This document shows, piece after piece, positions 2,685-39,104 of a DNA stretch of 64,000 nt. Origin of the DNA: an uncultured Candidatus Saccharibacteria bacterium (GTDB taxonomy: Bacteria > Patescibacteriota > WWE3 > UBA101185 > UBA10185); NCBI GenBank assembly GCA_964615625.1, contig CAZTQT010000001.1:12438-76437 (forward strand), given 5' to 3'. Below the pieces are notes generated by a model. That model searched no databases, had not been told where the DNA came from, and saw nothing but the letters and a program-made list of their open reading frames with translations. Made by a program: the position numbers and the translations under genes. How positions within the stretch are numbered: position 1 is the stretch's first letter; each line of letters opens with the position of its first letter.

Positions 2685-4195
2685 ATGGTTTCTCCTTTAT
2701 CTTCTTTTATTAGTTCCACATTTATTCTATCTGTATTTTTTGGAACTTTTGAGAAAAAAGGAACTCTTGGGGATATACTCATTTCGTAATATTCTATGTT
2801 TTTCAGAGACTCTATTATCTTTCTGGCTTCTTCCTCTGTTTTCCCACTTAAGCTTTCTCTAACATTATCCTCCTTAATATCAGGGATAATTATAGATCTT
2901 AATGTAATCTGAATATCAGCCTCCTTTGAATTCACAACACTGTTTACGGAATTGCCTAATACATTTATTTCTGTCTTTCTCTCTTTTTCAGGCATGTAGT
3001 GTCCTTCTGGTATAACACTCTTAAAATAATCACTAATGAAAGTGTTTAAATCCCCTTCTGTGTATATTAAGGCTTCAGCAGTAGCCTTTTGAGTTACGGA
3101 TATTTTATTTTTTTCGTCCCCAACCTGAGCACTAAATGTTTCAGAAGTTACTGTTACTTTTGTAGAACCTTCCACAAGCTTTTGATTTGAGGCTAGCTTA
3201 TTTTTTAAATCCTCCTCAGCCTTTTTAAGTAACGTTGTTCTAAGCTCACTAGAAACATCTGTTTTATCTGATTCTAAAACAATTTTTATTTCCTTACTGT
3301 TTCCTCCTGATAGTTTTCCTTTGGTCTTAGCTTCAGCCTCACTTTTATTTTTTCCAGATACAGAAAGGTTTTCATTATCATCTATGTTGTAATCCGGTCC
3401 TATATCTGAGGCTTCTACTTTTGCCTCAACCTCACCCCATTTTGATGTTAGTGTTTCTAGATCTTCTTCCCTTGGCGGTACAGTCACACTTTCCTTTAAC
3501 ACGTATACCAAGCTGTTAGACCCGTTTTTATAAGTAATCTTATTACCTTTATCAAGCTCCATCTCAGTATCTGTTTTATTGTATATTTTTATTTCCCCTG
3601 TAGCCTTTTCTCCTACAGTTTTTGAACCCGAAGTGTCCTTTTCTAAGCTATCTTCAACCTCTGCTGACAAAGTACTTCCGCGTAATATCATTTCTTTAAC
3701 ATTTGTTTGAGAATCGGCCTTTATTTTTACAGATATACTTTTTATGAATGGGTTAGATCCTACTGTTATTTTTACTGTAGCTTTGGGTGCTGTTGATCCG
3801 TAATAAATAAAAGAACCTACTAAAATTAAAGGTATTAACGCTAACAACCATTTTTTGTTTTCCCCTATTTTAGGCATTTTTATATGTGGGATACTAATAT
3901 TTCTCTTTTTTGGTTTTGTTGTGTATTCTTCAGTTCTTCCAAATTCCTCCGGTATGTACTCCATTTCTTTTCCTGATAATGCTTCCAATAAAACCTCTCC
4001 ATGCTCGTCGTTGGTAGAGAAGTTGATACTTTTTTCCATTTTATCGGCTTCGTGTTGAATAAGTTTTAAATTTAGAAAGTTCTCAAACAAAACAGATCCT
4101 TCTGGTATGAAAAGATCAATATTAAGATCACTAACCTCTTTAATTTTATTTATAACTTCTATTACATTATCTTCTTGGTTTAATTCCATTCTCAT
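2681..4195 (-). CDS. Bitopic membrane protein. It has a ~120-aa cytoplasmic N-terminus, one transmembrane (TM) helix and a ~370-aa Lys/Ser/Glu-rich extracytoplasmic domain. Function unknown. It may be the PilN-like partner of the adjacent actin-like protein.
   Basis: TM helix WLLALIPLILVGSFIYYG; the N-terminal NIDLFIPEG loosely resembles the PilN INLLP peptide; 4-nt overlap with ruvX. Confidence 0.4.
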   Translation of the reverse strand: MRMELNQEDNVIEVINKIKEVSDLNIDLFIPEGSVLFENFLNLKLIQHEADKMEKSINFSTNDEHGEVLLEALSGKEMEYIPEEFGRTEEYTTKPKKRNISIPHIKMPKIGENKKWLLALIPLILVGSFIYYGSTAPKATVKITVGSNPFIKSISVKIKADSQTNVKEMILRGSTLSAEVEDSLEKDTSGSKTVGEKATGEIKIYNKTDTEMELDKGNKITYKNGSNSLVYVLKESVTVPPREEDLETLTSKWGEVEAKVEASDIGPDYNIDDNENLSVSGKNKSEAEAKTKGKLSGGNSKEIKIVLESDKTDVSSELRTTLLKKAEEDLKNKLASNQKLVEGSTKVTVTSETFSAQVGDEKNKISVTQKATAEALIYTEGDLNTFISDYFKSVIPEGHYMPEKERKTEINVLGNSVNSVVNSKEADIQITLRSIIIPDIKEDNVRESLSGKTEEEARKIIESLKNIEYYEMSISPRVPFFSKVPKNTDRINVELIKEDKGETI

Positions 4196-4196
4196 A

Positions 4197-5399
4197 TTAA
4201 ATTACCCCTATTATTTCTTTATAAATAACTGATGCAGAAGCCATATATGTCCAATCATCACCTATGTTTTGATCTGTTATGTTGGCTATCTCAGGACTGT
4301 TTAGAAAAGAAAACTTTTTAAATTCTGGGTCATTCTTAAAAGGTATTGTCTTGGACCACTGTTCTGTTTCAAGAGCTTGAAAAATATCATCTATGTCAGA
4401 ACCACATCCAGAAAAATATACAGTTGGAGCAAAAGTTTTAACCCCAGGAAAATCTTCAAAAAGAATTTTTAAACCATCTATCCATATTTCTAAAACTTCC
4501 CTCAAACATGCTTTTACAAGGTTTGTTTCACTTTCTGATAGTTTTTTAGCTTTGTACATTTTAATAACAGCCTCAGTTTCTTTATTAGATAAACCCATCT
4601 TTGATCCAATAGCCTTTAAAAAGTGCAGATACCCTATGTTTAAAGATCTTGATGATGCCATACCTCCACTAAAAACAGCTCCAACATCAGTGGAATCCTC
4701 GGATAGATTTATGAGTACAAAGTCCTCTGGTTCAGTTGATGAAGTTTTTATTAATTCAACCAAAGAATACATCTGAGATCCTATGGCTATAATATTTAGG
4801 CCAGCCTTTTTAACAACATTTTGAACGGATTTTATATGAAAATCTGGAACGAATGCGTTATACACAGCCATTTCTACAGTTTGTCCTCTTTGTCCCTCAA
4901 GAACCCCAACCTTTTGATCATCTACCTTGAAATATATATCTGATGTTGTTATTGCACTTATACCAATGTCTGGATCACCTGTATTTTCCAAAACCTTGTT
5001 TCTGGCTTGGATAACAGCCGCTTCTTCTATTCTTTGATACATGTTTTCTATTTCGGATGTTTGTATAGGCTCTGATGTTGGTCTTTTCATCCTAACTGTT
5101 GTAGTAAGGCTGGTTGTTATACCTCCATCCAGACCGACAATAACGCTTTTAGTTTTGTTTTGTGAATTTTGAGTTGCTTTTTCTACAGTATTTTTTATTG
5201 CGTCTACAACAATATCATTGTATAAAATCATCCCGTTTCTGACAGAACCTTCGGGTAACTCTTGAAAACTTGCACCAGTTATATTTATTACGTTTTCGTT
5301 ATAGAGTAGCTCTAAGCATTTAACATCTCTAGCATTTATATTAAGAACCAAAAATCTATCATTATCCTCATACACTTTTTTAAAAGATGGCAGATTCAT
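4197..5399 (-). CDS. Actin-fold ATPase of the PilM/FtsA family
   Basis: N-terminal FLVLNINARDVKCLEL (phosphate-1-like), VIVGLDGG (second), GGMASSRSLNIGY; no ftsZ adjacent. Confidence 0.6.
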   Translation of the reverse strand: MNLPSFKKVYEDNDRFLVLNINARDVKCLELLYNENVINITGASFQELPEGSVRNGMILYNDIVVDAIKNTVEKATQNSQNKTKSVIVGLDGGITTSLTTTVRMKRPTSEPIQTSEIENMYQRIEEAAVIQARNKVLENTGDPDIGISAITTSDIYFKVDDQKVGVLEGQRGQTVEMAVYNAFVPDFHIKSVQNVVKKAGLNIIAIGSQMYSLVELIKTSSTEPEDFVLINLSEDSTDVGAVFSGGMASSRSLNIGYLHFLKAIGSKMGLSNKETEAVIKMYKAKKLSESETNLVKACLREVLEIWIDGLKILFEDFPGVKTFAPTVYFSGCGSDIDDIFQALETEQWSKTIPFKNDPEFKKFSFLNSPEIANITDQNIGDDWTYMASASVIYKEIIGVI

Positions 5400-5449
5400 A
5401 TTTGACTAGATTATACAAGCAAACGCGTGTTTATTTCAACGGATGGGTG

Positions 5450-7870
5450 TTAAAAAGGAAGTTTTGCAAAAGGATTTTCAGTAGTAGCATCTTTAAGATT
5501 TAAAACAGGGTCTGGGCTTAGTCTACTGTTTATAAATTCTTCCACCTCTTCTATAGGTGTGCCGTATTTTAATCTTGAAAGTTCCTTTATTTCTTCAGCA
5601 AGCTGTGAATCTCTTTTTACGGAGGTTAAATCATTCCAATCTACAAAGAGTGAGAATGGGGGAGTAGGTTGGCCTTTTACTAGTAATTTTATGTAGGCAT
5701 TCCCAACGCGTAAGTTGCTTAAATCATGTTTTGTGAACACAGGTTCAAACTGTGTTTCTAAGTATTCAGCATCATCTAAACCAACTCTGAATGCACATGT
5801 TGTACCTACATTACCAAAAACAGCAGTTTTTATGTCTTCTGGTAATTGTTCTATAAATTGATGTGCTACAGTTAGGTTTAATTTATATTTTCTTGCCTCA
5901 GATAGTATTGTTGCAAAATCTGGGGTAGCAAAGTTTTGAAATTCATCCACATGCAAAAAGAAATTTGGAAAATCCCCCTTTAGTTTTTGTCTCCTAAGAG
6001 CTGCAGTTAGTATTCTAGGTACCAAAAGAAGACCTAAGAAGTTTGAATTTTCCTCACCTATCTTTCCTTTCGCAAGATCTACTAACAATATCTTTTTATT
6101 TGCCATTATCTCGTCAAAGTCTATTGAAGATTTCTTTTGCCCTATTATATCTCTCATTGTTCTATCAACAGTTATACGATCAAATTTAGATGCAAAGTAC
6201 CCCATTGTTTCTGATTTTCTATTTTGGGATGTTCCTGCCATTTCATCCCAGTACATTTTGACCATAGGGTCTGTGATTTTATCCATAAATTTTTTGGAGT
6301 AACTCTCGTCTATAAAAAGCTTCAAAACATCTATCATTGTTGATTCTGGATCCGTCATAGCTGTAAGCATGACGCTTCTTATAGCTCTCTCAAGTACGGG
6401 ACCCATTATTCCTTGATGGTTAGGATCATAAAGCTTATATAGCAAAGCTATAAAGGAGTTAATTAACATGTGTTTTTCCTCTTCTGTCTTAGCTTCTAAC
6501 ATGTTTATACCAAGAGGTCTTTCTCTATCAGAGGCGTCAAAAAGAATAACGTCATTTTTTCTTTCTGGTGGGATTTTTTCCAACAATGCTTGAACATCTG
6601 TCCCGTGGGGGTCTATAACAGCAACACCTTCCCCTCTTTGTATATCTTGTAAGGCTAGCCACATCATAAGCTCAGATTTTCCTGTTCCTGTTTGACCTAT
6701 TATATAAACGTGTCGTTTTCTATCCTCATCTCTTATGAAAACTTTCTTTTTAATCCCTCTAAAAACACTCCAGCCTAGGAAAGCACCATCACCCTCATCA
6801 GGTAAATTAACAGGAGCAGAGGATGTTTTAGCACCTAACCATTCTATATTTGGTGTAGTTACATCTTTATTTGGAAAGTGAAATATTGTTGCCATTTCAA
6901 CAATATTCAAGACAGAGACATTTGAATATATTTGTTTTCCTACAATTGGCAATGTCAGTCTTTTTAAATTCATTCTTCTGTAAACAAAGTCCTCAACAAA
7001 TCTGATAGACGATGATGTATTTTTTCTAACAAATCTGTTGTATGTTATGTCTGTGAATTGCTCAAAAGCACTTGCTAAATTCTGTATCTGAGCCTCAGCA
7101 GCTATTTTATCTTCTGCTATGGAGACAATTCTTATTTTCGCAAAATACCCAGGATTACTTATTTTGTTCTCTATACCTTCAAGAAACTTTTCATCTACAG
7201 AAACAACCTTTTCCGGGTTAGCTTTTATAGCCTTTATTTTTGATATAAAACTTCTTCCAGCTAATCTCCAGCTGTCATCAGCTGACTGAAGTATATATTG
7301 TATTGCAAGAACCTCTCCGCTTCTCATTTTGCTCATAGCTGATGTTATTGAACCCATGGAATCACTTTTTAAATTTTCATATTCTTTGATGGGGTAGTAA
7401 GAAGGAGCTCTCAGGCGTAACTCTGTAACTCTGGTGTGCTTCCCTCTATCCCATATTTCTGGTGGGGGGACAACGTCTATATCTGCTTCAGGATAGGACC
7501 CGTTTATTTGTTTTTCTACTATGGTGGATATTTCATTTGGAGCAGCAACATAAAAAGAAATACCTGATTCTTTAGATATTATTTCAAAAGATATTCTGTA
7601 CTGTCCTGTAAAAAAAGCTCCTAAAGGACTTTTTCTTAAACTTAATAAGCTTGAAAACATGTGCTCAGCAGCTTTTACTTCTATCTCGTTTTCTTTTGGA
7701 AGTCGTACTTGGAAAAAAGTTAAGTTAAATTGGTAGTTTCTCTCATTTCTTCTCCTGATTATTGAGGACACAATCAAAATTATTAAAAAAATAACAAAAA
7801 AAACTATGAGTATAACTAGAGCACTTTCTGCAAAAGTTGTAGATTTTTCTAGAACATTACCTTGATGCAC
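5450..7870 (-). CDS. Membrane-anchored P-loop ATPase of the HerA/FtsK/VirB4-VirD4 superfamily (DUF87-like)
   Basis: N-terminal TM helix; Walker A IIGQTGTGKS followed by VIDPHG; Walker B HVDEFQNF; downstream ARKYKLNLTVAHQ (HerA/TraG-type); 806 aa. Confidence 0.6.
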   Translation of the reverse strand: MHQGNVLEKSTTFAESALVILIVFFVIFLIILIVSSIIRRRNERNYQFNLTFFQVRLPKENEIEVKAAEHMFSSLLSLRKSPLGAFFTGQYRISFEIISKESGISFYVAAPNEISTIVEKQINGSYPEADIDVVPPPEIWDRGKHTRVTELRLRAPSYYPIKEYENLKSDSMGSITSAMSKMRSGEVLAIQYILQSADDSWRLAGRSFISKIKAIKANPEKVVSVDEKFLEGIENKISNPGYFAKIRIVSIAEDKIAAEAQIQNLASAFEQFTDITYNRFVRKNTSSSIRFVEDFVYRRMNLKRLTLPIVGKQIYSNVSVLNIVEMATIFHFPNKDVTTPNIEWLGAKTSSAPVNLPDEGDGAFLGWSVFRGIKKKVFIRDEDRKRHVYIIGQTGTGKSELMMWLALQDIQRGEGVAVIDPHGTDVQALLEKIPPERKNDVILFDASDRERPLGINMLEAKTEEEKHMLINSFIALLYKLYDPNHQGIMGPVLERAIRSVMLTAMTDPESTMIDVLKLFIDESYSKKFMDKITDPMVKMYWDEMAGTSQNRKSETMGYFASKFDRITVDRTMRDIIGQKKSSIDFDEIMANKKILLVDLAKGKIGEENSNFLGLLLVPRILTAALRRQKLKGDFPNFFLHVDEFQNFATPDFATILSEARKYKLNLTVAHQFIEQLPEDIKTAVFGNVGTTCAFRVGLDDAEYLETQFEPVFTKHDLSNLRVGNAYIKLLVKGQPTPPFSLFVDWNDLTSVKRDSQLAEEIKELSRLKYGTPIEEVEEFINSRLSPDPVLNLKDATTENPFAKLPF

Positions 7871-14994: not shown

Positions 14995-16653
14995 TTATAC
15001 AGTTTCTTGTTCTGTTGCGGTTAAATTTACAGCTTCTGTTTTTATGTCTTGTTTTGTAATTTTTAATCTTCTAAGAAGCTTGTAAAAAAGTTCTATCTCC
15101 TCAACTTTCAATAAGTGAGTAATAAGCAGATATGTAGCCATTCCTGTTATTCCTGCTATTACAGTTAAGATTAAAAGATTTATTGTTCTTGTAGTGTCCA
15201 ACACAAAGTTATCTAAAAATTTCATCGGTAAGTAGAGTGTTACCCCCATTATGGCAGTAGACCATAGTATTTTTGTGAGAGGTATGAAAAGTTTTTTGTT
15301 GTCGAATTTTCCTACTTTTTTCCCTAAAAAAATTATGAGTAAAAAGGCATCCATGACAGAAGTTATAGTGTATGCAAGAGCTATACTCCATACACCAAGT
15401 TTTAAATTGGTGACAAAAAACACTGTTAGTAAAATATTTATAACCGCGGTTATTGTATTAATAACGACGGGGGTTTTTGTGTCCTTTAGGGCATAAAAAG
15501 CTCGGGATGTAAGATAGGCAATACTTTGTGGAAATATTGAGATGCTGAAAAAAGCTAGTGTTTGAGCAGTCCTTATTGTAGATGCCCATGGAAAGTTACT
15601 AACTCCGTACACGATCCTTATTGCTGGTACCCTTAATATTAATAGAATGGCACTAATTGGTAGTACAAGATATGATACTTGATGGAACGATGTTAAAAAA
15701 GTATTTTTAAACTTTTCCCTGTCTTCATGAGCAGCTTGTGAGGACAGTGTTGGTAGGCTTGCCGCTGCCATAGATACACCAAACAAACTTACAGGAAATG
15801 TTTGTAGTTGATCTGCAAACTTCAAATATATAGCGGAAGAAGAGGATATTAAAATAGCAAGACTATTGTTTATTGTTTGTGTAACGTTAGATATAAGAAC
15901 GTTCGTTATTCTAGCAGGTATTAATTTGAATGTATTTCTAAAATTATGATCAGAAAAGTTGATGATGGGGGAGTATTTAAATTTGGTTTTTTTTGCAAGA
16001 GGGAGCTGTACAGAAAAGTGGAGAATAGATCCTATAAGTACTCCCACCGCTGCCCCGTATATTCCAAACCTATTAGATAAAAATACAATTCCTAATATCA
16101 TACCTATGTTATAGAAAACAGGTGCAAGGGCGGGGATAATAAAATATTTAAATGATTGAAGAACACTTGTTAAAAGGCTCCCCAGAACTAAAAATATTTG
16201 TGAAACAAGCATTATTCTCATTATGTTAGATCCAAGATTTATTTCTTCTTTTGAGAACGTTCCTACGGATAAAAGCTTTATTATGGTTGGAGACATAAAA
16301 AATATTACTGTTCCCACTAGTATAAAAAATAAAAGAGTAAAGTTTATTATTGAGGATGCTGTCTTGTATGCTTCTCCCTCATCTTTTTTTAACAACCCTG
16401 TGAAAACAGGTATAAATACAGTTGATATAGCACCAAGTATAAGTATTGAGTACATTAAGTTTGGTATTTTGTCAGCTGTGTAAAAGATAGTTAATTCTCT
16501 AGATACACTAAAATATTTAGCTAATAGACGTGTTTTAATTAGTCCTAGAATAGAACTAAAACCACTGGCCAGACCAAGTATTACTGCGGCTGAAAGTATA
16601 GTGTTTTGTGCTTTGAATAAAAAGCCGTTTGTATTTTTATTTTCTATTTTCAT
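14995..16653 (-). CDS. murJ: Lipid II flippase MurJ/MviN
   Basis: 552 aa, ~14 TM helices, MurJ N-terminal pattern LSAAVILGLASGFSSILGLIKTRLLAKYF. Confidence 0.8.
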   Translation of the reverse strand: MKIENKNTNGFLFKAQNTILSAAVILGLASGFSSILGLIKTRLLAKYFSVSRELTIFYTADKIPNLMYSILILGAISTVFIPVFTGLLKKDEGEAYKTASSIINFTLLFFILVGTVIFFMSPTIIKLLSVGTFSKEEINLGSNIMRIMLVSQIFLVLGSLLTSVLQSFKYFIIPALAPVFYNIGMILGIVFLSNRFGIYGAAVGVLIGSILHFSVQLPLAKKTKFKYSPIINFSDHNFRNTFKLIPARITNVLISNVTQTINNSLAILISSSSAIYLKFADQLQTFPVSLFGVSMAAASLPTLSSQAAHEDREKFKNTFLTSFHQVSYLVLPISAILLILRVPAIRIVYGVSNFPWASTIRTAQTLAFFSISIFPQSIAYLTSRAFYALKDTKTPVVINTITAVINILLTVFFVTNLKLGVWSIALAYTITSVMDAFLLIIFLGKKVGKFDNKKLFIPLTKILWSTAIMGVTLYLPMKFLDNFVLDTTRTINLLILTVIAGITGMATYLLITHLLKVEEIELFYKLLRRLKITKQDIKTEAVNLTATEQETV

Positions 16654-16693
16654 TTCCCTTATTATTTAATGTACTTTTTACTTTGGCGTAGTT

Positions 16694-17041
16694 ATGATAT
16701 TATACAACCCGATTATGGCAAATACTAAGTCAGCAAAAAAGAATATTAGATCTTCGGCTAGAAAGAAAGCCCACAATGATAGGTGGGAGATGAAATATAA
16801 GTCCGCGAGAAAGTCTTTGTCCAAAGCTATAGCAGCTAAAGAGAAGGATTCGTTAAAGGAAAAATTTGTTTTATTGCAGAAATACTTAGATAAAGCTTCT
16901 AAAGAAAAAACTATTCATAAAAATAAAGCAAATAGGGTAAAATCTATATATGCTAGAAAAGTTGCTGCCCTCAATCTTCAAGAAGAAAGCGGAAAAGAGT
17001 CCGCAGTCTCAAAGCGTTCCTCAGGAAAAAAGACCAAGTAA
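16694..17041 (+). CDS. rpsT: 30S ribosomal protein S20 with a Lys/Ser-rich C-terminal extension (probable start MANTKSAKK at 16715)
   Basis: ANTKSAKKNIRSSARKKAHNDRW is the classic S20 N-terminus. Confidence 0.8.
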   Translation: MILYNPIMANTKSAKKNIRSSARKKAHNDRWEMKYKSARKSLSKAIAAKEKDSLKEKFVLLQKYLDKASKEKTIHKNKANRVKSIYARKVAALNLQEESGKESAVSKRSSGKKTK

Positions 17042-17582
17042 TGCTGATGACTCCTTTGATGAGGGTTTTAATTTAATACCTTTTTCTCAAACTAATATCA
17101 TATCTCCGAGCTATGCAGGTCCTGTGATAAAGTGGGTTAGAAAATCAATAGTTTTTGTTAGTGTTGTTTTTGTTGTCGTTTTATTATTAAATTTCGCTCT
17201 TTCTTATGTTGTTAACTATCAAAAACGTTGGCAGGACAAACTAGTATCCGAAATGAGTCTTTATGATGACATAGAGATTCGGGCAAAAAATATAGATGAA
17301 AAAATAGTTGCTTATAAGGACTTTTTAGGTAGTAGAAAGCTTCTCTTAGATAAATTCAAATATATTTTAGAAAAAAGAGGAGATTATGTAGAGATTAAAA
17401 ATCTTGATATGGATTATTACGGATTTACAATGAATTTTTCCGTTAAAGATGCCGTTTCTTTTACCAAATTTATTACAGCATGTGTAGAGGGTGGTATGGT
17501 TTCAGATATAACAATTCAGTCTGCGACTATGAGTACCGAAAAAGATGCTTTTAACGTGTCAATTCACGGAGGTTTTAAATAA
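16950..17582 (+). CDS. PilN-like bitopic membrane protein (start uncertain; the ATG-defined ORF overlaps rpsT by 92 nt)
   Basis: Short cytoplasmic segment, TM helix IVFVSVVFVVVLLLNFAL, coiled-coil, C-terminal alpha/beta domain; immediately upstream of a PilO-like gene. Confidence 0.45.
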   Translation: MLEKLLPSIFKKKAEKSPQSQSVPQEKRPSNADDSFDEGFNLIPFSQTNIISPSYAGPVIKWVRKSIVFVSVVFVVVLLLNFALSYVVNYQKRWQDKLVSEMSLYDDIEIRAKNIDEKIVAYKDFLGSRKLLLDKFKYILEKRGDYVEIKNLDMDYYGFTMNFSVKDAVSFTKFITACVEGGMVSDITIQSATMSTEKDAFNVSIHGGFK

Positions 17583-18124
17583 TGGAAAACATTTTAAACT
17601 CACTAAAAAGGATTTTTTCAAACGAAGTCACTGCTGCTAAAATATATGTAGTTTGGGGAGTTTTAGTTTTGGTTGTCTTTGGTTTCTTGGGTCTTTATCC
17701 TGTGACAAAAATACTGATTTCAAACTTTTCCCTTGTAGACAGTTTGTATAAAAGTAATATTTCCATGGAAGAAAACTTAAAAAAATTAAAAGAAATAAAA
17801 GAAAAGGTAGATTACGTAGAAGAGGACATCTATTTATTGGAGAATTTTGTTCCTACAGAATTTAGATCTCAAAACTATCTTGTGGAAATGTCTGCTATAT
17901 CTGGAGAGAGTGGTTATTTTATGGATAAATTAAATTTTGGTGAGAATAAAGATTCTAGTGTCGTATTGAGTCTTAATTTAGTAGGAAAGGGCGATCCGAT
18001 TAACATGATAAGTAGGTTAGAGAGTTCTGCTAAATTAAATGAGATAGAGCTGATTAGATATTCAGTTGGAGAAGTAACTGACATGTTAAATATACAAATA
18101 AGATCTTTCATAATGGACAAATAA
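17582..18124 (+). CDS. PilO-like bitopic membrane protein
   Basis: TM helix IYVVWGVLVLVVFGFLGL, coiled-coil ENLKKLKEIKEKVDYVEEDIY, periplasmic-type domain; ATGA overlap with the upstream gene. Confidence 0.5.
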   Translation: MENILNSLKRIFSNEVTAAKIYVVWGVLVLVVFGFLGLYPVTKILISNFSLVDSLYKSNISMEENLKKLKEIKEKVDYVEEDIYLLENFVPTEFRSQNYLVEMSAISGESGYFMDKLNFGENKDSSVVLSLNLVGKGDPINMISRLESSAKLNEIELIRYSVGEVTDMLNIQIRSFIMDK

Positions 18125-18315
18125 TGAAAAATTTATTTATAACTGTAGCCATATTTTTATTAACATTACTTATCTGGTTGGCTGTTGGTATGAAAAAACT
18201 AGACAAAGACTTTTTTCTTTCAAATTCAGTACTTGACAGAGCGATACCTTTGAATGTTAATATTGATATAGATTTCTTTAATAAGTTAAAGAACCCTGCC
18301 TATGAAAACAAATAA
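18124..18315 (+). CDS. Small membrane protein
   Basis: 63-aa ORF with an N-terminal TM helix, start-stop coupled. Confidence 0.3.
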   Translation: MKNLFITVAIFLLTLLIWLAVGMKKLDKDFFLSNSVLDRAIPLNVNIDIDFFNKLKNPAYENK

Positions 18316-18814
18316 TAATAGTTACAGTATAAAATCTCAGCAGACTAAAGGTCTTAGTACTTTTATTTTGACCTTGTCTATATCTCTTATAATTTTCAGC
18401 GCTGCGTATTACCTCATGACTTATAAATCCAACCAGCTTGAGAATTCTTCAGATCCTTCAATATCAAACGTTTTTGTAAAGGAAGAGGAGTCAAGTAATC
18501 CTGTAACGGATGCTTCAAGTGATACTTCTAAGGATAAAACTGTTTTTGGTTCTATTGCTAGTGCTAAACCAAACACTGAGTACAGACAAGTTTTGTCTGG
18601 ATCAGACGCTGTTCCTTCAGGTACTTATGTTAGTGATGCTTCTACAGCTCCACAGACAACTACTAGTGCGAGTCTTGAGACAGGTGTAACGAGTGTAACT
18701 GTTGGTTTGGTTTTATCTCTTGTACTTTTTGCTTTTACCATGGTTTTTGTTTATAAAGACCCTAGAAAAATAGCTTTAAGTACGTTTGAGAGAAATGCAT
18801 CCAAGGGTTTATAA
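18302..18814 (+). CDS. Surface protein with an N-terminal signal anchor and a C-terminal sorting-signal-like tail. The tail has the motif SLETG, a hydrophobic helix and a basic tail.
   Basis: SLETG (18671-18685), followed by VTVGLVLSLVLFAFTMVFV and YKDPRK; Thr/Ser-rich middle. Confidence 0.5.
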   Translation: MKTNNNSYSIKSQQTKGLSTFILTLSISLIIFSAAYYLMTYKSNQLENSSDPSISNVFVKEEESSNPVTDASSDTSKDKTVFGSIASAKPNTEYRQVLSGSDAVPSGTYVSDASTAPQTTTSASLETGVTSVTVGLVLSLVLFAFTMVFVYKDPRKIALSTFERNASKGL

Positions 18815-18830
18815 GTTAAATCCTTAACCT

Positions 18831-19562
18831 TTAATCATCCAAAGAAGCTCTTATTAGCAGTCTGTTGGTTTTTGTTCCTGCAGGCCAGCAAGTCATAAGA
18901 CTTATTGTAGAGGTATTTAAATACGCTGGTTTCCATCCGGACAGTGGAAATACATCAGACGGTTTTAAAACATTTTTATCTTCAACAGTATATGTTAATT
19001 CTCTGTTGTTGTATTTTATAAAGACTTTATCACCTTTTTCTAAGTCTCCAAGTGTTGAGAATATAGTTTTGTAATTTTTGGGGTTAAAAAACCAAGGTAA
19101 AACGGAATGACCATATATGAAAGAATCTCCTATTTTACCTGGTAATGCCGAGCCTTTGTAGTGACCTATGAATTCATCTGGGCTGGGCCCATCATACTCG
19201 CTCTTAACTAGTGCATTTTTTATACCAAGCTTTGGTATTGTTATATTAAAGTATTCTGGAATATCGTTTTCTTCTTTTGGAATTTCCCCACCTTTGTTCT
19301 CAAGTTCCTTAAAAGTGAAGTCCTTAAACCCTGTGGCTAGGCCAAGTACTGTTTGTTCCATGGGTTTTACAACTGTGTCTTGAGTTTTAAAATATACCAA
19401 CGGGAGTATCACTTGCGTTCCAAGGATTAGAAACCCTAGGGACATTAAAAGTCCGGATAATATTCTTGTTTTAAACAAGAATCGGTAGTTTACCGAGCTG
19501 TATATAGGATCAAAGGACTTGTCTTTTATGTAAATTTTTTTACTGTTTTTGTTAGAAGGCAT
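18831..19562 (-). CDS. Sortase family transpeptidase
   Basis: N-terminal TM anchor; catalytic-Cys motif TISLMTCWP (TLxTC-type); conserved His in GHYKG; Arg near the C-terminus. Confidence 0.75.
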   Translation of the reverse strand: MPSNKNSKKIYIKDKSFDPIYSSVNYRFLFKTRILSGLLMSLGFLILGTQVILPLVYFKTQDTVVKPMEQTVLGLATGFKDFTFKELENKGGEIPKEENDIPEYFNITIPKLGIKNALVKSEYDGPSPDEFIGHYKGSALPGKIGDSFIYGHSVLPWFFNPKNYKTIFSTLGDLEKGDKVFIKYNNRELTYTVEDKNVLKPSDVFPLSGWKPAYLNTSTISLMTCWPAGTKTNRLLIRASLDD

Positions 19563-19564
19563 TA

Positions 19565-20263
19565 TTAAGAGTTTAACACTATTTCCACTGCCATTGGAAC
19601 CAATACATCCTCATCAATCTCACCAATCTTTGACTTCATATCTAGTTTTCTGAGTTCCTCGTATATGTGTATTAGTTGCTGCTCTGAAAATAAAAGAGAT
19701 TGGCTACGAGCTTTGTTTTTTATAAATCCAGATGATTTGTTATAAGATGGGCTATTAAATTTTGATGTGGAAACATTTCTTAATCCGTAAAACATCATGG
19801 GTATTATTTCAAAAGAGGACACGCTGTCATTAATGAGTTTAGAGAGTTCTAAATAAGCATTTTCTCTTTGTTTATAAAATACAGCATCAACAAATTTAAA
19901 AATATTACTTTGAGGTTTTAGTTCGTTTAAGTTTAGTTTAGCCTTAAGTCTTCCTGCATTTTTAATAAAAGCGTTGGTTTTAGTGAGTTGTTTGTTAGAA
20001 AGAATGATTAGAGTTGTTTGTTCAGGTATCCTTTCTATTTTTTCTATATACGGTTCTAAGCTAGCTCTTCCTGTGCCAGATATATCTAAAACAACAAAAG
20101 GAGGTGTTCCGAATAAATCGTTAGAGCAGCATATCTCATAAAGACCCTCTGGAGTTACACTTGAAATAGACATTTCCTGTCGTGTCCCGCCGCATTTATT
20201 TTGTTGGTTTTGGATCATTATTCTGGATTTTGATATGTCTTCACCGTGGACTATGTATATCAT
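19565..20263 (-). CDS. holA: DNA polymerase III delta subunit (short form)
   Basis: IYIVHGED N-terminus, LFGTPPFVVL, LIILSN pattern typical of HolA. Confidence 0.55.
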   Translation of the reverse strand: MIYIVHGEDISKSRIMIQNQQNKCGGTRQEMSISSVTPEGLYEICCSNDLFGTPPFVVLDISGTGRASLEPYIEKIERIPEQTTLIILSNKQLTKTNAFIKNAGRLKAKLNLNELKPQSNIFKFVDAVFYKQRENAYLELSKLINDSVSSFEIIPMMFYGLRNVSTSKFNSPSYNKSSGFIKNKARSQSLLFSEQQLIHIYEELRKLDMKSKIGEIDEDVLVPMAVEIVLNS

Positions 20264-20287: not shown

Positions 20288-21478
20288 TTATTTATTACCA
20301 AAAAGATATTTTTGTACGTACGCATGTATTTGTGAAAAATCACCCGCTTGTGGAACCAAGACCCAAGCCCCTCCATATAATGTTGAATCTGTTGGGTGAT
20401 ATAACAGCCCCCCCTCATCAGCATTATCCCCAGTGTCTATAACTATAGATTTTATATCTTCAAAGCTTAAGTCTTGTGAGAGTTGGTAAAAGCTTTGTAT
20501 ATCCTGTAAATCAATGTCTGTCTCAACATTAGACACGTATTGATTGTAAATTTCCTTTAGCTTTATTGGGTTTAACAAGGTGTTTACGGATAATGCCTTA
20601 TTTTTTATTGCCATTATCACCCCCTGTTGTCTTTTTGATCTCGCAAAATCACTTCCTTCCCCGTTGTTTCCATGTCTAGACCTTGCATATTTTAGAGCAG
20701 TTTTTCCGTCCATTTTTTGTACCCCCTGATTAAAAGATATCGTTTCATACCTGCATGGAAACGCTGTTAAAAAGTTTATTGTTTTCCCATCTTCTGTGTA
20801 AGAGCCGCCATTTTCAATTATTTTCTTTGTAATTTCTTCTTTTTCTTCCTCTGTTTTTCCACAAAAATCACCCTCTTTACCCTCAACAGGGTACTCATAA
20901 TCTGTGAAAGATTTTTCTACGTTTATATCAACACCTTCAAGAGTATCTATAATTTCCTCAAATAATTGAAAAGTAACGGTTGCGTAATAATGTATCGGTA
21001 TACCAAGTACGTTCTCCATTTGTATCTTCAACTCTTCTACACTTGAATTGGCATAAACCTCATTTATTTTTGATGAATATGTGTAACCATTTTCTAGTTT
21101 ATAGTTGTTTATCCACAAATCTCGTGGTAGGGAAATTAATACTACATCGTTGTCTACTTTACCTATAGATGCCACAAGTATCGTGTCAGTAAGTGTATTT
21201 CTGCCGCTTTCAATACCCAAACTTCTTTTATCAGATCCTAGTACTAGTATGTTGGTTCTACCATCACTTTGTTTTAGGTTTGTTTTTGATTGTGACGACC
21301 CTCCCACTATTTTTATAGGATTAAAAGCTTTTTTAATAGAATCTTTAAAAAAGAAGAAAACAATGCCTATGAAAATCAAAATGCCTATAAGTAGAAATAC
21401 TTTGGCAATACCGTTGTTTTTCTCGTTTGCCCTTTTTACGTAAATTTTCTGTTGTTTTGATATATCTGTATATTTCAT
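20288..21478 (-). CDS. LytR-CpsA-Psr (LCP) family cell-envelope phosphotransferase
   Basis: TM anchor then NILVLGSDKR...DTILVASI...LISLPRDLW LCP core. Confidence 0.75.
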   Translation of the reverse strand: MKYTDISKQQKIYVKRANEKNNGIAKVFLLIGILIFIGIVFFFFKDSIKKAFNPIKIVGGSSQSKTNLKQSDGRTNILVLGSDKRSLGIESGRNTLTDTILVASIGKVDNDVVLISLPRDLWINNYKLENGYTYSSKINEVYANSSVEELKIQMENVLGIPIHYYATVTFQLFEEIIDTLEGVDINVEKSFTDYEYPVEGKEGDFCGKTEEEKEEITKKIIENGGSYTEDGKTINFLTAFPCRYETISFNQGVQKMDGKTALKYARSRHGNNGEGSDFARSKRQQGVIMAIKNKALSVNTLLNPIKLKEIYNQYVSNVETDIDLQDIQSFYQLSQDLSFEDIKSIVIDTGDNADEGGLLYHPTDSTLYGGAWVLVPQAGDFSQIHAYVQKYLFGNK

Positions 21479-21495: not shown

Positions 21496-22194
21496 CTAAT
21501 CCTGAACGTAGTATCGAATTATATCCGTAAATGTTTCTGAATCAAGGCTTGCATTTCCTACTAAGACCCCATCTATTTCCCTTATTCTGGATATTTGAGA
21601 AGCGTTTTTTTCATTTACAGATCCTCCGTATATCAACGGTGTTTCGGAGGGTATTATTTTTCTTATTTCTTTTGCAATAGCCTCTATTTTTTCTGGTTCT
21701 TCTGATCTATAAACCCCTCCAACAGATATATTTTGAGGATTTTCCCAAGCTATTATGCAACCTTCTTTGTGAAGGGATGGTAAATCAGCTGGGTTAACAA
21801 AACAAATGATTGGGGTAATGTTATCTCTTAAGCACAGGTCTCGTTTTTTTATGACATCTTCTATGTTTTCTTGTCTTTCACTATGGCCTATTATTGCGTA
21901 TCTACAAAAATCTTTTATTTGAAAAGCACCTGTATCCCCTGTATGAGCACCTCTGTCAAGTGAAGACACGTCTTGAACACCAATGTTTACGCCCATTTTT
22001 CCTGCTATATCGCACATTGCAGGGACGTATATCAAAGAAGGGCAGATTATCACACGGGGCCATCTTTCCTCAATTATTTTTCTTTTTTTCCAGTCTTTTT
22101 TTATATTTTTATATTTTTTGCTAAATGCCCCTGACCACCCCAATATCTCTTTTGACCCCATATTCATTTTCCAATTTGCTATAACGTATTTCAT
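21496..22194 (-). CDS. tpiA: Triosephosphate isomerase
   Basis: ANWKMN N-terminus, IGHSERQ, IAWENP...GG, YGGSVN. Confidence 0.85.
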   Translation of the reverse strand: MKYVIANWKMNMGSKEILGWSGAFSKKYKNIKKDWKKRKIIEERWPRVIICPSLIYVPAMCDIAGKMGVNIGVQDVSSLDRGAHTGDTGAFQIKDFCRYAIIGHSERQENIEDVIKKRDLCLRDNITPIICFVNPADLPSLHKEGCIIAWENPQNISVGGVYRSEEPEKIEAIAKEIRKIIPSETPLIYGGSVNEKNASQISRIREIDGVLVGNASLDSETFTDIIRYYVQD

Positions 22195-23042
22195 AATTCA
22201 GATATTTTTTTAATTGTCTCTTCTATAAGTTTAGGAAGGTTTTCTATGTCTTCATGTGTGTAGTTATAACCCAACGTATTTAGACAAGAAAATACCATAC
22301 CTATATCAGTGTATATTTTATCGGCAAACTGACATGCCACAAGACTATTTATAACTACATTGCCTCCTATTTCACCAACTTTAGATCTGTTACATCCCAT
22401 TGGGCAGTTAGAACAAGAGGGGTATCCTTCTTTGATAACTCTTAGATCATTACTCATTTCCATAATATTTTCATAAAGCTTCTTGTAATCTTCAAAATTA
22501 TCAACCGTGTAGTTTTCAGTTCCTGTTATTGATAAACCAACAATATTTCTATCCAAAAGTGCTTTTTCTAGATAAAGGTCTGGGGTAGTAAAGTACTCGT
22601 CCGCTTGTATTTTATCTTTGTTTACACATATTTGAGATCTTTTTCCTGGAAGCCCTAAAGATTGTATGTCTGTCTCTTTAGTATGGAATAAAACATCTGT
22701 ATTTTGTAATTCTACAACAACCTCATCTGATGATTTGCCGTGGAATAATATAGAGTCTATTCCTGCAAATTTTATTCTTGTTGATAAGTTTCCTCCTATG
22801 TATATGTCTTCAATAGCTCCGTTGTTATCTAAAACAATAGATGTTTTAGAGGCAAATGGGAAGAAGCCATTTAAAGGTCCTACAGAAAATATTAGCGGGT
22901 TTTTATCATGATAAACTTCTAAAAGTTTAAGACCAACACCAGTACCGCCAAAATAGGGATTTAAATCGGTAAAACTTTTGGTTTCAGATGTTTTATTTTC
23001 TAGGTCTATAATTACGACTTTTTTTACACTGGTATCTGTCAT
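22191..23042 (-). CDS. Truncated AOR-family protein. It carries the N-terminal domain and the CxxCxxxC [4Fe-4S] motif only.
   Basis: GPLNGFFPFASKTS...IGGNLSTRIKFAGIDSILFHGKS matches the AOR N-terminal domain (GPLTGT...GGYFGAELKFAGYDAIVVEGKA); CSNCPMGCNR matches AOR CYACPIGCGR; the gene ends at 283 aa where tpiA begins. Confidence 0.6.
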   Translation of the reverse strand: MTDTSVKKVVIIDLENKTSETKSFTDLNPYFGGTGVGLKLLEVYHDKNPLIFSVGPLNGFFPFASKTSIVLDNNGAIEDIYIGGNLSTRIKFAGIDSILFHGKSSDEVVVELQNTDVLFHTKETDIQSLGLPGKRSQICVNKDKIQADEYFTTPDLYLEKALLDRNIVGLSITGTENYTVDNFEDYKKLYENIMEMSNDLRVIKEGYPSCSNCPMGCNRSKVGEIGGNVVINSLVACQFADKIYTDIGMVFSCLNTLGYNYTHEDIENLPKLIEETIKKISEL

Positions 23043-29571: not shown

Positions 29572-32100
29572 TTAAAGTCTGTCTGTTGATTTCTTTTCAA
29601 AATCTTTTAAAGCAAGTTTTCTAGATTTACCGTTGTGTATATAGTAAGCTCCCATACCAGTCAAGATAGAAGATATTACTATGAATAATAGTTCTTCACT
29701 CCCTGTCTCTGGTACTGATTGGGTTGATTCTCCTAACACATTGTTTTGTACCTGTGTTTTATTTTGAGCGATATTGTTTGAAGTACTTCCTTGAACTGGA
29801 TTGGTGGTAATTGTAGCCAGGGCTGTATTCTTATGCCAACCATAAGGATACTTATTAAGATTGATAGCTATGCTACTTTCTCCTCTTTTACAGTGGTTAG
29901 TTGGTTTTATAATTATATTTTGCCAAGGAGCTACGTTGGCTAAGAATTCGTGACCATCGTTTTCTGTGTTGGATACTTTCCATGGATATTTTCCTGTACC
30001 ATCATCAATTTCTATATCAACTCTATCTGCATCAACTTGAACCCAAGTTAGTTGCATTCCCTTTACACCGTTTTTTTCTGCTGGCTTGAGTTCTATTCTT
30101 TCTATTGGTTCAGGTTTTTTCCAATGACATCTCGTATCAGGATGGAAAACAACCCTGTTCTTAAATGTTGGGTCATCGTTATCATCACCATCGAAACTTG
30201 GGGTAGCGTGGTATGCTTTGAAGGCATTCACCCTTTTACCTGTAAGTATTTTTCCACCCAGATCTCCAACATCGTCTCCTGTTTCTAAAACTATTCTTTT
30301 GACATCTTCTGGAGATAAAGTTGGGTTTTTACCCCATATTATGGCGGCTACGGCTGCTGCATATGGGCTAGCCATTGATGTACCATCCATTAGTTGATAA
30401 CTACCGTCGGCAGCTTCTGAGTCAACAATTTTTATATCATCAATGATACAACCATAATGTATTGTTGGGTCGTAATTACCGAGATTAACAGAAGGTGTTT
30501 GCCAGCGAATCCTTACAGTATTATAATTTTGCACGTGATTAGTGATACCTATTGATGCATAGCCTGCAAAAGTTTCGTTGTTCGCAAACACCTCTACCCA
30601 AGAGTAATTCTCATAAATTTCAACAGATAGTCTAGGTAACCCAGGGTTTCCGACAGGTGTCGGTAGAGAACAGTCGTAAAAAAATTGCATATACACTTGT
30701 TTTGGATCACTCATCGAGAATGAAGGTGAAAGTGTTATGTAAGAATCGGCTCCCGAGGCATACGTTCCAGATGGGAGCATAGCGTTTAAATCTGTGATTA
30801 AAGCTACATTACCGCTACCGTATTCTATAGTTCCCCAGTTGGGGTATGTTCCAGAGACATCAAGACCGCCTATATCTGGTGGGGTAAGGTTGTTAAAATC
30901 TATATTCACCATCCTTTTTCCCTCCAAACTAAGAATATTTTCACCAGGAGCGCCAACATCAACGGATTTTACACCGTAGTTTGAGAAAGTTGATAAATTA
31001 TCATGTTGATCGGTAGATGCTACAGATATTATGTTTGGCAAGTCATATGAAGCAGGGTACTCAGGAGTAATATCATTATTATCCCCAATACCATCAACCC
31101 CTCCGTTTCCTGCTGCAGCTACTACTAATCCGGGATATGTTTCTATAGCTTCTCTAAATGTCTCAGAATAGCTCGGACCTCCCAAACTCATATTTATTAT
31201 TTTTACTCCATGGGTTTTTGCATAAGAGATACTTAACAAAATATCTGTTAAATTAAAGCCACTGCTATCCCCAGCTCTTATGGGTAAAACTTTGACATTG
31301 TTATACCTGCTAATACCACTTATTCCTCCTGAATTATCTACAATACTGGCTATTATTCCTGCCACATGGCTACCATGACCGTCTTTATCATAAGGTTCGC
31401 TACTACCTAAAAAATCTACTCCTGGTACCAGGTTATTTTTTATATCTGTGTGATTTATAGCTACTCCTGTATCTATAACAGCAACAACTATATCTGACTT
31501 GTGTTTTGTTTCTATATCCCACATATCGCTTACATCCATATCCGCATCTTCTGTACCTGCGTTTCCAAAGAAAGATTGTCCTGTGTTTTCTAATGCCCAT
31601 TGTTGTTGATAGTGAGTATCATTTGGTGTGTAAGTAGGGTAGTAAATATAATTTGGTTCTACATATTCAACACGGGTATCTTTTTTAAGTTCTTCTATTT
31701 TTTCTTTTACACTTTTGCCATCAGATATTTTGTATGTTTCCACATTCATATTTTTTACAGATCCAACTTTTTTCAAATTTGCCAATTTTGCAATTTGGTT
31801 CGCTTCGGATTTATCATCAGAGTTAGATAGCCTTATCTCACTGTCTTTATATTTAACTACCACCTGTCCTTCTACATATTTTGGTCTACTTTTTTTATAG
31901 CTTATATTGGACCTTGAGGTAGAGTTTTTTGAAGACGGGTTAGAGAATATATTATGTTTCTCAGATTTATTCTGATTATTCTTTGTGAGCGCAATGACAA
32001 ATATCAAAAATGATATTGATAGAGCAGAAACGATAGGTGTGATGTTTTCTCGTTTAATTTTTATGAAAGGTTTATTTGAGTTTTTAAAAATACTATTCAT
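29572..32100 (-). CDS. Subtilisin-family (S8) serine protease, membrane/cell-wall anchored. Its C-terminal VPETG sorting signal is at ~29701-29715. Start is placed at ATG 32100; the longer ORF runs to 32232.
   Basis: VAVIDTGV (Asp), DGHGSHVAGI (His), GTSMASPYAAA (Ser); N-terminal signal anchor; C-terminal VPETG + hydrophobic helix + KSRK. Confidence 0.8.
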   Translation of the reverse strand: MNSIFKNSNKPFIKIKRENITPIVSALSISFLIFVIALTKNNQNKSEKHNIFSNPSSKNSTSRSNISYKKSRPKYVEGQVVVKYKDSEIRLSNSDDKSEANQIAKLANLKKVGSVKNMNVETYKISDGKSVKEKIEELKKDTRVEYVEPNYIYYPTYTPNDTHYQQQWALENTGQSFFGNAGTEDADMDVSDMWDIETKHKSDIVVAVIDTGVAINHTDIKNNLVPGVDFLGSSEPYDKDGHGSHVAGIIASIVDNSGGISGISRYNNVKVLPIRAGDSSGFNLTDILLSISYAKTHGVKIINMSLGGPSYSETFREAIETYPGLVVAAAGNGGVDGIGDNNDITPEYPASYDLPNIISVASTDQHDNLSTFSNYGVKSVDVGAPGENILSLEGKRMVNIDFNNLTPPDIGGLDVSGTYPNWGTIEYGSGNVALITDLNAMLPSGTYASGADSYITLSPSFSMSDPKQVYMQFFYDCSLPTPVGNPGLPRLSVEIYENYSWVEVFANNETFAGYASIGITNHVQNYNTVRIRWQTPSVNLGNYDPTIHYGCIIDDIKIVDSEAADGSYQLMDGTSMASPYAAAVAAIIWGKNPTLSPEDVKRIVLETGDDVGDLGGKILTGKRVNAFKAYHATPSFDGDDNDDPTFKNRVVFHPDTRCHWKKPEPIERIELKPAEKNGVKGMQLTWVQVDADRVDIEIDDGTGKYPWKVSNTENDGHEFLANVAPWQNIIIKPTNHCKRGESSIAINLNKYPYGWHKNTALATITTNPVQGSTSNNIAQNKTQVQNNVLGESTQSVPETGSEELLFIVISSILTGMGAYYIHNGKSRKLALKDFEKKSTDRL

Positions 32101-32164
32101 AGCAGTACTAATAATGATGCGTGTTTTTACCTGATTTGTAAACAGTTTTTCAAAGTTATCGTTA

Positions 32165-32443
32165 TCAGTTGGCAGTGTTTTTGCACGGAGCAAAATCGCA
32201 TTTAGGTGGGACTCTGCCAACAAAGCTACCATCAGGACATTTTCTTACATCTTGGGTGCAAAAAACAACCTCATCTTCTTCTGGTTCTTGTTCCTCTGTT
32301 TCTTTTACCGTTTCTATTTTTTCTGGAACTTTTTCTTGTTGTACCTCTTTTTTATTTTTGGAAGTTGTTAAGATACAAATTGTTATTAAGGATACCAATG
32401 CTAGAGATAAGATTATGACATACACAGTGGTCTTTTTACTCAT
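32165..32443 (-). CDS. Small membrane-anchored Cys-rich protein (four C-terminal Cys)
   Basis: N-terminal TM helix, acidic linker, CTQDVRKCPDG...CDFAPC. Confidence 0.35.
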   Translation of the reverse strand: MSKKTTVYVIILSLALVSLITICILTTSKNKKEVQQEKVPEKIETVKETEEQEPEEDEVVFCTQDVRKCPDGSFVGRVPPKCDFAPCKNTAN

Positions 32444-35965: not shown

Positions 35966-35967
35966 AA

Positions 35968-38862: not shown

Positions 38863-38944
38863 TTTACATTATTGGTGTTTAGATTTGATAAAGATCTAAT
38901 TTTCATTATAATTGTGTGAACTTAATAAGTAAGGAGAAGAGAAA

Positions 38945-39098: not shown

Positions 39099-39104
39099 TT
39101 ACTT

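Follow-up and report, generated by a model that had tools for sequence, protein, structure and literature searches.

Housekeeping sortases, such as the class A enzyme SrtA with its LPXTG signal and the class E enzymes with LAXTG, belong to a family of membrane-anchored cysteine transpeptidases with a His/Cys/Arg triad. They are encoded among core genes, serve several unrelated surface clients and recognize a tripartite signal, in which a pentapeptide ending in TG is followed by a transmembrane (TM) helix and a basic tail. The exosortase/PEP-CTERM, archaeosortase/PGF-CTERM and rhombosortase/GlyGly-CTERM systems have a C-terminal domain composed of a motif, a TM helix and a basic cluster, and each consists of a small regulon with one processing enzyme. 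Here we analyze a window of 64,000 nucleotides (nt) from an uncultured bacterium of the candidate division WWE3 of Patescibacteria (contig CAZTQT010000001.1, positions 12,438 to 76,437; G+C about 34%). It encodes a sortase at positions 18831-19562 on the minus strand and, convergent with it, a small Ser/Thr-rich protein that shares a C-terminal module with a distant S8 protease. With a probability of about 0.72 we think that these are a core housekeeping-type WWE3 sortase and its dedicated substrate, and that the enzyme reads a lineage-specific extended C-terminal module. The system is a lineage-specific variant of a known sorting system. Sortases are enriched in the candidate phyla radiation (CPR)/Patescibacteria (PMC6744442), and in the literature searched we found no description of CPR sortase signals or clients, or of this module.

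The window sortase is like the class A and class E enzymes in its family and triad, its location among core genes, its several unrelated clients and the tripartite build of the signal. It is unlike them in that it reaches no class cutoff and that the signal has V/S/N/A at position 1 and P/L at position 2, with an additional cytoplasmic motif at a fixed distance of 26 residues and an upstream VLxG motif; moreover, one dedicated client gene is always adjacent to the WWE3 sortase. Compared from general knowledge, the lineage-specific and well-conserved C-terminal domain with its paired enzyme resembles the exosortase-type pairs, but the window enzyme has a classical sortase fold and is neither an exosortase nor a rhomboid. 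A precedent for a position 1 other than Leu is provided by Clostridioides difficile SrtB, which recognizes (S/P)PxTG (PMC4155245, PMC5118464). This enzyme also has the xPxTG form and few clients per genome in common with the WWE3 system, but it belongs to class B, and the C. difficile signals have ordinary short basic tails. In Actinomyces oris, which has a housekeeping SrtA, LcpA glycosylates GspA (PMC6381275), and SafA, a TM protein of about 52 amino acids (aa) with an exoplasmic FPW that is encoded immediately downstream of srtA, regulates the housekeeping sortase (PMC9282373). There, as in the window, a housekeeping sortase is tied to a LytR-CpsA-Psr (LCP) enzyme and a small membrane protein, in the window by gene neighborhood only; similarity to GspA or SafA is lacking, FPW is found in neither the 170-aa nor the 63-aa protein of the window, and gene order and orientation differ.

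The sortase, the two module-bearing proteins and their parts are located as follows.

18831-19562, minus strand: sortase, 243 aa (PF04203, catalytic triad, sortase fold)
18302-18814, plus strand: putative dedicated substrate, 170 aa, with a convergent ortholog beside the sortase in 29/29 loci
About residues 18-41 of the 170-aa protein: N-terminal TM anchor
18539-18562, plus strand: TVFGSIAS motif of the Ser/Thr-rich linker
18590-18607, plus strand: VLSGSD motif of the same linker
18671-18685, plus strand: SLETG pentapeptide, residues 124-128
18686-18754, plus strand: TM helix after SLETG, 23 residues, VTSVTVGLVLSLVLFAFTMVFVY
18755-18811, plus strand: cytoplasmic tail, KDPRKIALSTFERNASKGL
29572-32232, minus strand: maximal open reading frame (ORF, 886 aa) of an S8 subtilisin-like protease with a fervidolysin-type prodomain (PF00082, E 1.7e-48; PF22148)
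29701-29715, minus strand: VPETG pentapeptide of the S8 protease

The 170-aa protein ends in TSASLETG-VTSVTVGLVLSLVLFAFTMVFVY-KDPRKIALSTFERNASKGL and the protease in NNVLGESTQS-VPETG-SEELLFIVISSILTGMGAYYIHNG-KSRKLALKDFEKKSTDRL, where SEELLFIVISSILTGMGAYYIHNG is the TM helix. Both proteins start with an N-terminal export signal and have a hydrophobic segment followed by a positively charged tail at the extreme C-terminus; exactly 42 residues follow the ETG in each of them, and RK[IL]AL..FE[RK] is common to the two. In the window, xETG with a TM helix occurs in these two ORFs only, and so does the RK.AL..FE tail. A profile was built from the small-protein tails of other genomes only, with both window proteins left out, and among the 199 window ORFs of at least 50 aa it gave 81.5 bits for the 170-aa protein and 25.7 bits (E 8.6e-8) for the protease, which was aligned over the whole module to its last residue. 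There was no third match among the 199 ORFs, the next best having 5 bits, and on the orthologs of the small protein the tail profile scores 80-94 bits. As only those two proteins match an independent tail profile, the signal that they have in common is real and not a product of chance. The sequence-only reading had proposed one non-LPXTG tripartite signal for a convergent Thr/Ser-rich protein of 170 aa with SLETG at 18671-18685 and for the distant S8 protease, and this holds, including the coordinates. Two of its details have to be changed, since the hydrophobic helix comprises 23 residues and not 19, and the chain does not end at YKDPRK but runs on with IALSTFERNASKGL.

The composition of the signal is best seen in the orthologs. 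A scan for sortase orthologs with one genome per species resulted in 29 orthologous loci (46-74% identity), with none for the complete WWE3 genome CP006914.1, and positions of the motif were counted in 30 small-protein orthologs from orthologous WWE3 loci. Position 1 is V in 16, N in 5, S in 4, A in 3 and D or T in one each; position 2 is P in 21 and L in 9; position 3 varies (E13 D6 N4 Q3 S3 A1); position 4 is T in 26, with S and G in two each, and position 5 is G in all 30. According to these counts, the conserved core is [LP]x[T]G. The earlier description as an xETG or [LP]ETG-type signal was thus too narrow, as position 3 can be E, D, N, Q, S or A, and VPxTG prevails in the wider database. 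Neither window protein has a canonical LPXTG pentapeptide; the family motif is [VNSA][PL]x[T/S/G]G. The pentapeptide with its invariant Gly directly abuts the TM helix, and from this Gly to the Arg of the cytoplasmic RK there are 26 residues in 30/30 small proteins and in the window S8 protease. The cytoplasmic motif (N/K/D)xR[KR]xA[LI]xxFE[KR], mostly (N/K)xRKxALxxFEK, is nearly invariant, and the cytoplasmic tails, with 19 residues in the 170-aa protein and 18 in the protease, are conserved and longer than usual. In addition, a pre-motif VLAG[AST][TD] is found 62-104 residues from the C-terminus in 28/30 small proteins. Judged from these alignments, the module is composed of four elements, namely the pre-motif VL[AG][GE][ST][TD], a short linker with [LP]-x-T-G, the TM helix and the cytoplasmic (N/K)xRKxALxxFEK. 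No Pfam or NCBIfam model matches this module, and the NCBIfam anchor models match neither window protein at E<=1.

Nine module sequences were combined into a profile, and an exhaustive search of 1.84 billion representative proteins with it (E<=0.001) matched 119 clusters, with the module at the protein C-terminus in about 117 of them; P0258 and P0286 are false positives (multi-stretch). The N-terminal TM signature of the small family is present in 90 of the 119 matches, and roughly another dozen belong to that family as diverged relatives or as fragments with a truncated N-terminus. The other carriers are S8 proteases, four GLUG-repeat proteins that lack a protease domain (P0241-P0244), an FG-GAP fragment (P0277), a 427-aa protein (P0327), and a family of secreted proteins of 170-182 aa with a cleavable signal peptide (P0294, P0303, P0326, P0343 and P0354), whose members also share a conserved F.L..IG...T.G..Y.EWW segment. 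Since the module closes S8, GLUG, FG-GAP and small secreted proteins that are otherwise unrelated, it is a portable C-terminal sorting signal. VPDTG and VPETG predominate among the pentapeptides of the database matches. In 1.3 Mb of ortholog loci the module is confined to the syntenic small protein and the S8 ortholog, so that there are few clients per genome.

The likely product of the S8 gene is the 842-aa form starting at 32100, which is also the form used by public gene calls (P0121, 100% identical). An 886-aa subtilisin had been placed at 29572-32100; its VPETG at 29701-29715 was correctly located, whereas 886 aa correspond to 29572-32232 and the start at 32100 gives 842 aa. The S8 relatives P0121-P0132 form 12 clusters (48-100% identity, 624-1436 aa, three with added GLUG repeats), and all of them end in MVP[ED]TG-TM-[KR]SR[KS]xAL[KR][GD]FEKK. 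The module is also kept in the S8 relative at L082 and is absent from more distant S8 proteins. Only two close S8 relatives came out of a metagenome scan; a 69%-identical metagenomic ortholog has VPDTG. An N-terminal signal (LSISxLIF) common to the small protein and the tail-bearing S8 proteases was considered and rejected, as the TM hidden Markov model (HMM) of the small family does not rank tail-bearing S8 proteins above others. The gene of the GLUG carrier P0243 follows two FemAB genes and is flanked by those for an AddA-type helicase and RmuC, an arrangement syntenic with 34131-40163 of the window, and because of this matching neighborhood it can be attributed to a WWE3 relative. In the WWE3 relative at L091, a module-bearing GLUG-repeat gene (5148-7763) is inserted at this helicase-RmuC junction, where the window has an empty gap of 240 bp (38863-39104); the junction looks like a variable insertion site of a sortase client.

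Many WWE3 genomes contain a second or third sortase, and the other CPR sortase paralogs adjoin canonical LPxTG proteins or other signals. One WWE3 paralog is encoded beside canonical LPATG proteins, with canonical LPxTG clients at L032 and L042. The gene of another WWE3 paralog overlaps the 3' end of genes for giant proteins of 600-3220 aa (L031, L033-L036, L038, L039, L041, L049, L052, L057, L058, L063 and L078), which end in EEGSVLGE-(15-20 aa)-SPW[TF]W-TM-RKRN without an [LP]xTG; from its sequence, this ending may be a different, undescribed sortase signal. In 10/10 canonical CPR clients (loci L032, L043, L045, L050, L062, L070, L073, L075 and L080), VLG[AEVI][SAV][TA] is found 1-20 residues before the LPxTG, typically as (E/Q)VLGAST.LPxTG, so that a VLG-type motif looks like a CPR-wide pre-anchor motif. 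The window S8 protease has NNVLGES (29716-29740) before its VPETG, and the resulting NNVLGESTQSVPETG is a near relative of the canonical CPR signal. The WWE3 module therefore looks derived from a CPR-wide VLG...LPxTG signal, in which the Leu at position 1 would have been changed to Val and the cytoplasmic motif would have been added.

The enzyme itself is a sortase of no established class. It is matched by Pfam PF04203 (E 1.4e-20, 73.8 bits against a cutoff of 26.6), and the generic TIGR01076 is the only NCBIfam sortase model that passed (47.2 against 39.35). The polypeptide comprises a conserved cytoplasmic N-terminus of 33 aa, a TM helix, a linker modeled at low confidence, which contains a conserved GFxDFxFxE, and the catalytic beta-barrel. 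The triad residues His152, Cys225 (in TLMTCWP) and Arg234 are invariant across an alignment of 47 sequences, and in PDB 4d7w they correspond to the catalytic residues. An AlphaFold2 (AF2) model based on the same 47 homologs has a mean predicted local distance difference test (pLDDT) value of 72.9, with about 75-92 in most of the barrel and a low-confidence loop at 155-165, and shows the eight-stranded beta-barrel. Foldseek found 129 PDB matches to it at E<=0.001, and all 50 that were listed are sortases. Family, triad and fold agree with the minus-strand sortase with TLMTCWP that had been proposed for 18831-19562; its activity as a transpeptidase on a sorting motif is putative. Homologs number 678 at E<=1e-5, the closest named ones being from the candidate division WWE3 and other Patescibacteria.

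The nearest solved structures by sequence are the class C sortases 4d7w, 6bwe and 2xwg (E about 1e-8), and the class C model NF033745 is the best of the NCBIfam class models. However, it scores 57.9 bits against a cutoff of 160, about a third of it, and the other class models also stay below their cutoffs (E 42.4/160; D 38.1/165; SrtD 39.7/140; F 29.7/166; GN 14/158). No class A or B family is among the NCBIfam matches, and class B structures are absent from the PDB sequence matches and from the 50 Foldseek matches listed. As Foldseek mixes class C, A, E and D sortases at similar E-values (2e-10 to 4e-8 among the matches listed), a class assignment by structure was dropped. Unlike the class C enzymes, the window sortase has no DP[FWY] lid motif in the extracellular part of its sequence, where the conserved GFxDFxFxE segment sits at the place that a lid could occupy; it also lacks a C-terminal TM helix, because the chain stops 9 residues past the catalytic Arg, and it lacks pilin clients. 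A classification of the enzyme with HMMs had been suggested as a check of the sequence-only reading; the outcome that would have spoken against this reading, a class whose known motif does not fit, did not come about, since no class model claims the sortase.

Public gene calls begin the sortase at Met40 (204 aa), which leaves a gap of 120 nt to holA, whereas 39 extra upstream codons (19446-19562) narrow this gap to 2 nt. As the omitted 39 residues hold positions that are invariant across the 47-sequence alignment (Y11, D18, P19, I20 and F28), the 243-aa form is favored; the first 39 residues are probably translated, and the public calls would then be short.

The small protein and the sortase are encoded by convergent genes with 16 nt between them, and in 29/29 orthologous loci an ORF of 138-210 aa with the same termini and a variable middle part is convergent on the sortase gene. 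The protein is annotated as a gene on public contigs, and exactly the same 170-aa protein is found on the public Logan assemblies SRR8925811 and SRR27710307, with identical gene order. Ser and Thr make up 29% of the protein and 33% of its 82-aa middle part. Members of the family begin with a conserved N-terminal TM helix, continue with a Ser/Thr-rich linker that is disordered and has two short motifs, and end in the sorting module. The orthologs have V or I at -1 of any would-be signal-peptidase site, which argues against cleavage of the small protein by signal peptidase. A pilin-like or adhesin-like protein, as earlier suggested, is not what is seen here, since no folded domain, Ig-like domain, pilin motif or conserved Lys is found in the comparison of the orthologs.

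The surrounding region is syntenic as a whole, with lepA-murJ followed by rpsT, the genes for the 210-aa, 180-aa and 63-aa proteins and the substrate gene on one strand, which face sortase-holA-LCP-tpiA and the gene of a 283-aa protein on the other. The relevant neighbors in the window are:

16950-17582, plus strand: PilN/GspL-like bitopic protein, 210 aa (single-sequence AF2 model, Foldseek)
17582-18124, plus strand: PilO-like bitopic protein, 180 aa (Pfam PilO matches in orthologs)
18124-18315, plus strand: single-TM protein, 63 aa, position conserved in most orthologous loci, overlapping both neighbors
19565-20263, minus strand: holA (PF21694, E 1.2e-8)
20288-21478, minus strand: LCP transferase (PF03816, E 3.3e-33)
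34131-35965, plus strand: two FemAB-family genes (PF02388, E 4.4e-26 and 8.7e-13)

The small-substrate gene closes a conserved operon that also includes the PilN-like, pilO and 63-aa genes, and the overlaps at the junctions suggest that the four are probably co-translated. PF04350 (PilO) matches 7/15 orthologs of the 180-aa protein with a best E of 1.8e-6 and does not match the window copy; the start of this gene overlaps the stop of the upstream gene, and its synteny is conserved. The 210-aa protein has no Pfam match. Its single-sequence AF2 model comprises a TM helix, a long helix and a beta-beta-alpha-beta-beta domain at pLDDT about 75-84, for which Foldseek returned the periplasmic domain of XcpY/GspL (E 9.5e-4, TMt 0.78), PulL and EpsL, and then PilO (3jc8) and PilN (4bhq), with E up to 0.09. 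PilN/GspL proteins are expected to be bitopic, with a ferredoxin-like periplasmic domain and an INLLP-type motif near the N-terminus that binds PilM; the orthologs of the 210-aa protein conserve NL[IL][SP] ahead of the TM helix. An assignment as PilN by profile-profile comparison (hhalign) with the PilO-like family failed, with a probability of 5.7%. The PilN/PilO-like nature of the upstream genes, which had been noticed before, stands, more firmly for PilO than for PilN. The first 92 nt of the 210-aa ORF (16950-17041) overlap the 3' end of rpsT in a different frame, and its N-terminal MLEKLLP is conserved in the orthologs; this conservation may merely reflect the constraint on rpsT, and the start given here is tentative. 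The 63-aa protein matches no Pfam or NCBIfam model and is annotated as a gene in public contigs. At 2681-7870 (minus strand) there is a further cluster of three genes. They encode a 504-aa protein, a 400-aa protein that weakly matches PilM (PDB 3jc8, E 0.012) and, with a TM helix at its N-terminus, an 806-aa DUF87/HerA/TraG-like ATPase. The cluster could provide the PilN-like protein with the PilM partner that it otherwise lacks, or else be part of a monoderm-type secretion or conjugation machine.

The sortase gene is the last one of a long core operon gap-pgk-tpiA-LCP-holA-sortase, and holA is found in this order in 29/29 loci and the LCP gene in 28/29, the contig of L004 ending before LCP. 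Between tpiA and an 82-aa Cys-rich ORF, and thus inside the glycolytic operon, the 283-aa protein (22191-23042, minus strand) is encoded, which corresponds only to the N-terminal domain of an aldehyde:ferredoxin oxidoreductase (PF02730, E 1.3e-18); its gene is kept in every orthologous locus. In the region 16500-19800, 15 promoter-like sites (13.5 +/- 3.6 in shuffled controls) and 4 terminator-like sites (1.4 +/- 1.3) were counted, with no clear excess of either. Further wall genes of the window code for MurJ and an S11 carboxypeptidase, and together with the FemAB and LCP genes they are consistent with a cross-bridged wall. By their family, the FemAB pair are likely builders of the peptidoglycan cross-bridge and would as such supply the nucleophile that the sortase needs.

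From these data a mechanism can be outlined, for which we infer the cleavage site, the wall linkage, the element that is read by the enzyme, the biological role of the small protein and any pilus role. The sortase would be anchored in the membrane by its N-terminus, with the catalytic domain outside of the cell, and after export the module would hold the clients in the membrane. By analogy with characterized sortases, Cys225 would cleave between Thr and Gly, and the acyl-enzyme would be resolved by the lipid II cross-bridge, which would join the client to the FemAB-built peptidoglycan cross-bridge. Clients would be the small Ser/Thr-rich protein and the S8 protease, and in relatives also the GLUG-repeat, FG-GAP and small secreted proteins. 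As an LCP gene belongs to the sortase operon and the client is rich in Ser and Thr, an LCP-dependent glycosylation before anchoring is conceivable.

Several observations weigh against this interpretation. The scissile Thr is replaced by Ser or Gly in 4/30 orthologs, and VPNGG, VPDGG and VPDAG occur in the database, which is unusual for the P1 position of a sortase. The TM helix and the cytoplasmic tail, which would be discarded on cleavage, are more conserved than the mature part, and this suggests a separate function of either the uncut protein or the peptide left behind. A co-variation of the cytoplasmic N-terminus of the sortase with the substrate tail was considered and had to be rejected, as the tail remains constant at L026-L028 where that N-terminus diverges; a simple recognition of the tail by the N-terminus is thus without support. 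Given the extra sortases of WWE3, the pairing of this particular enzyme with the module is suggested by adjacency, and the interpretation as a whole has been drawn for an uncultured organism from sequence and models.

Some of these points would also fit a 170-aa protein that is not a substrate at all and instead is a membrane partner with two TM helices, either a SafA-like factor or a subunit of the PilN/PilO platform, in which the [LP]xTG would be structural or a decoy and would never be cleaved. The high conservation of both TM helices and the cytoplasmic tail, the replaced Thr and the translational coupling of the gene to the PilN-like, pilO and 63-aa genes agree with such a partner, and SafA, a small TM protein that is genetically linked to a housekeeping sortase and regulates it, is a precedent (PMC9282373). 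However, the module is also found at the C-terminus of S8, GLUG, FG-GAP and small secreted proteins, which are unconnected with PilN/PilO, and SafA, with 52 aa, an FPW and a co-directional gene downstream of srtA, differs from the window protein with its 170 aa, no FPW and a convergent gene. We therefore regard a membrane partner as decidedly unlikely. The module could also be a tail-anchor or retention signal that is processed by another enzyme or not at all, while the neighboring sortase serves canonical LPxTG clients. Neither the conserved cytoplasmic motif nor the fixed 26-residue spacing is a feature of known sortase signals, and other sortases are available in WWE3 genomes. Yet, apart from the module-bearing protein, there is no canonical LPxTG protein in the window or within 10 kb of the orthologous sortases; canonical LPxTG clients adjoin a different paralog (L032, L042), and, exactly as in known sorting signals, the TM helix directly follows the x[LP]xTG. 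A tail-anchor or retention signal of this kind is thus very unlikely.

The sequence-only reading had also considered that a surface filament is processed by this sortase, and a class C-like, pilus-polymerizing enzyme with the small protein as its filament subunit would be in line with the best class-model score, the closest PDB sequences and the pilus-related neighbors. But the class C score is far under its cutoff, the C-terminal TM helix and the lid are missing, Foldseek does not separate the classes, and neither an Ig-like domain nor a pilin motif nor a conserved Lys is seen in the candidate subunit. The neighbors, moreover, are not pilins but type IV pilus genes, which are sortase-independent. 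We consider the filament highly improbable and, if only weakly, as already refuted. The reading of a dedicated sortase-substrate pair with an extended module is therefore the one that we prefer.

If its N-terminal TM helix is retained, the small protein would be a membrane-to-wall tether next to PilN/PilO. In an extended form of this idea, the small protein is a covalent tether with its N-terminal TM helix beside PilN/PilO and its C-terminus linked by the sortase to peptidoglycan, and the 26-residue ruler and NPRKxALxxFEK constitute a second recognition element on the cytoplasmic side. We hold this to be unlikely. If it were true, the type IV pilus alignment platform would be fixed to the wall of a single-membrane cell, a role that would equal that of PilP/PilQ/TsaP in double-membrane bacteria, and the second recognition element would make the sorting signal two-sided, a type that is not known for sortases.

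In principle, the sorting system is otherwise ordinary, and it is the extended, rigidly spaced anchoring signal and the link to a type IV pilus platform that merit experiments. For one CPR lineage, the analysis provides a searchable sorting module and a short list of clients, which comprises a protease, GLUG-repeat and FG-GAP proteins and a protein linked to the pilus platform, and thereby a handle on the surface-displayed proteins of episymbiont-like cells. Beyond this lineage, the fixed spacing and the cytoplasmic motif suggest that sortase signals can hold information on the cytoplasmic side of the membrane.

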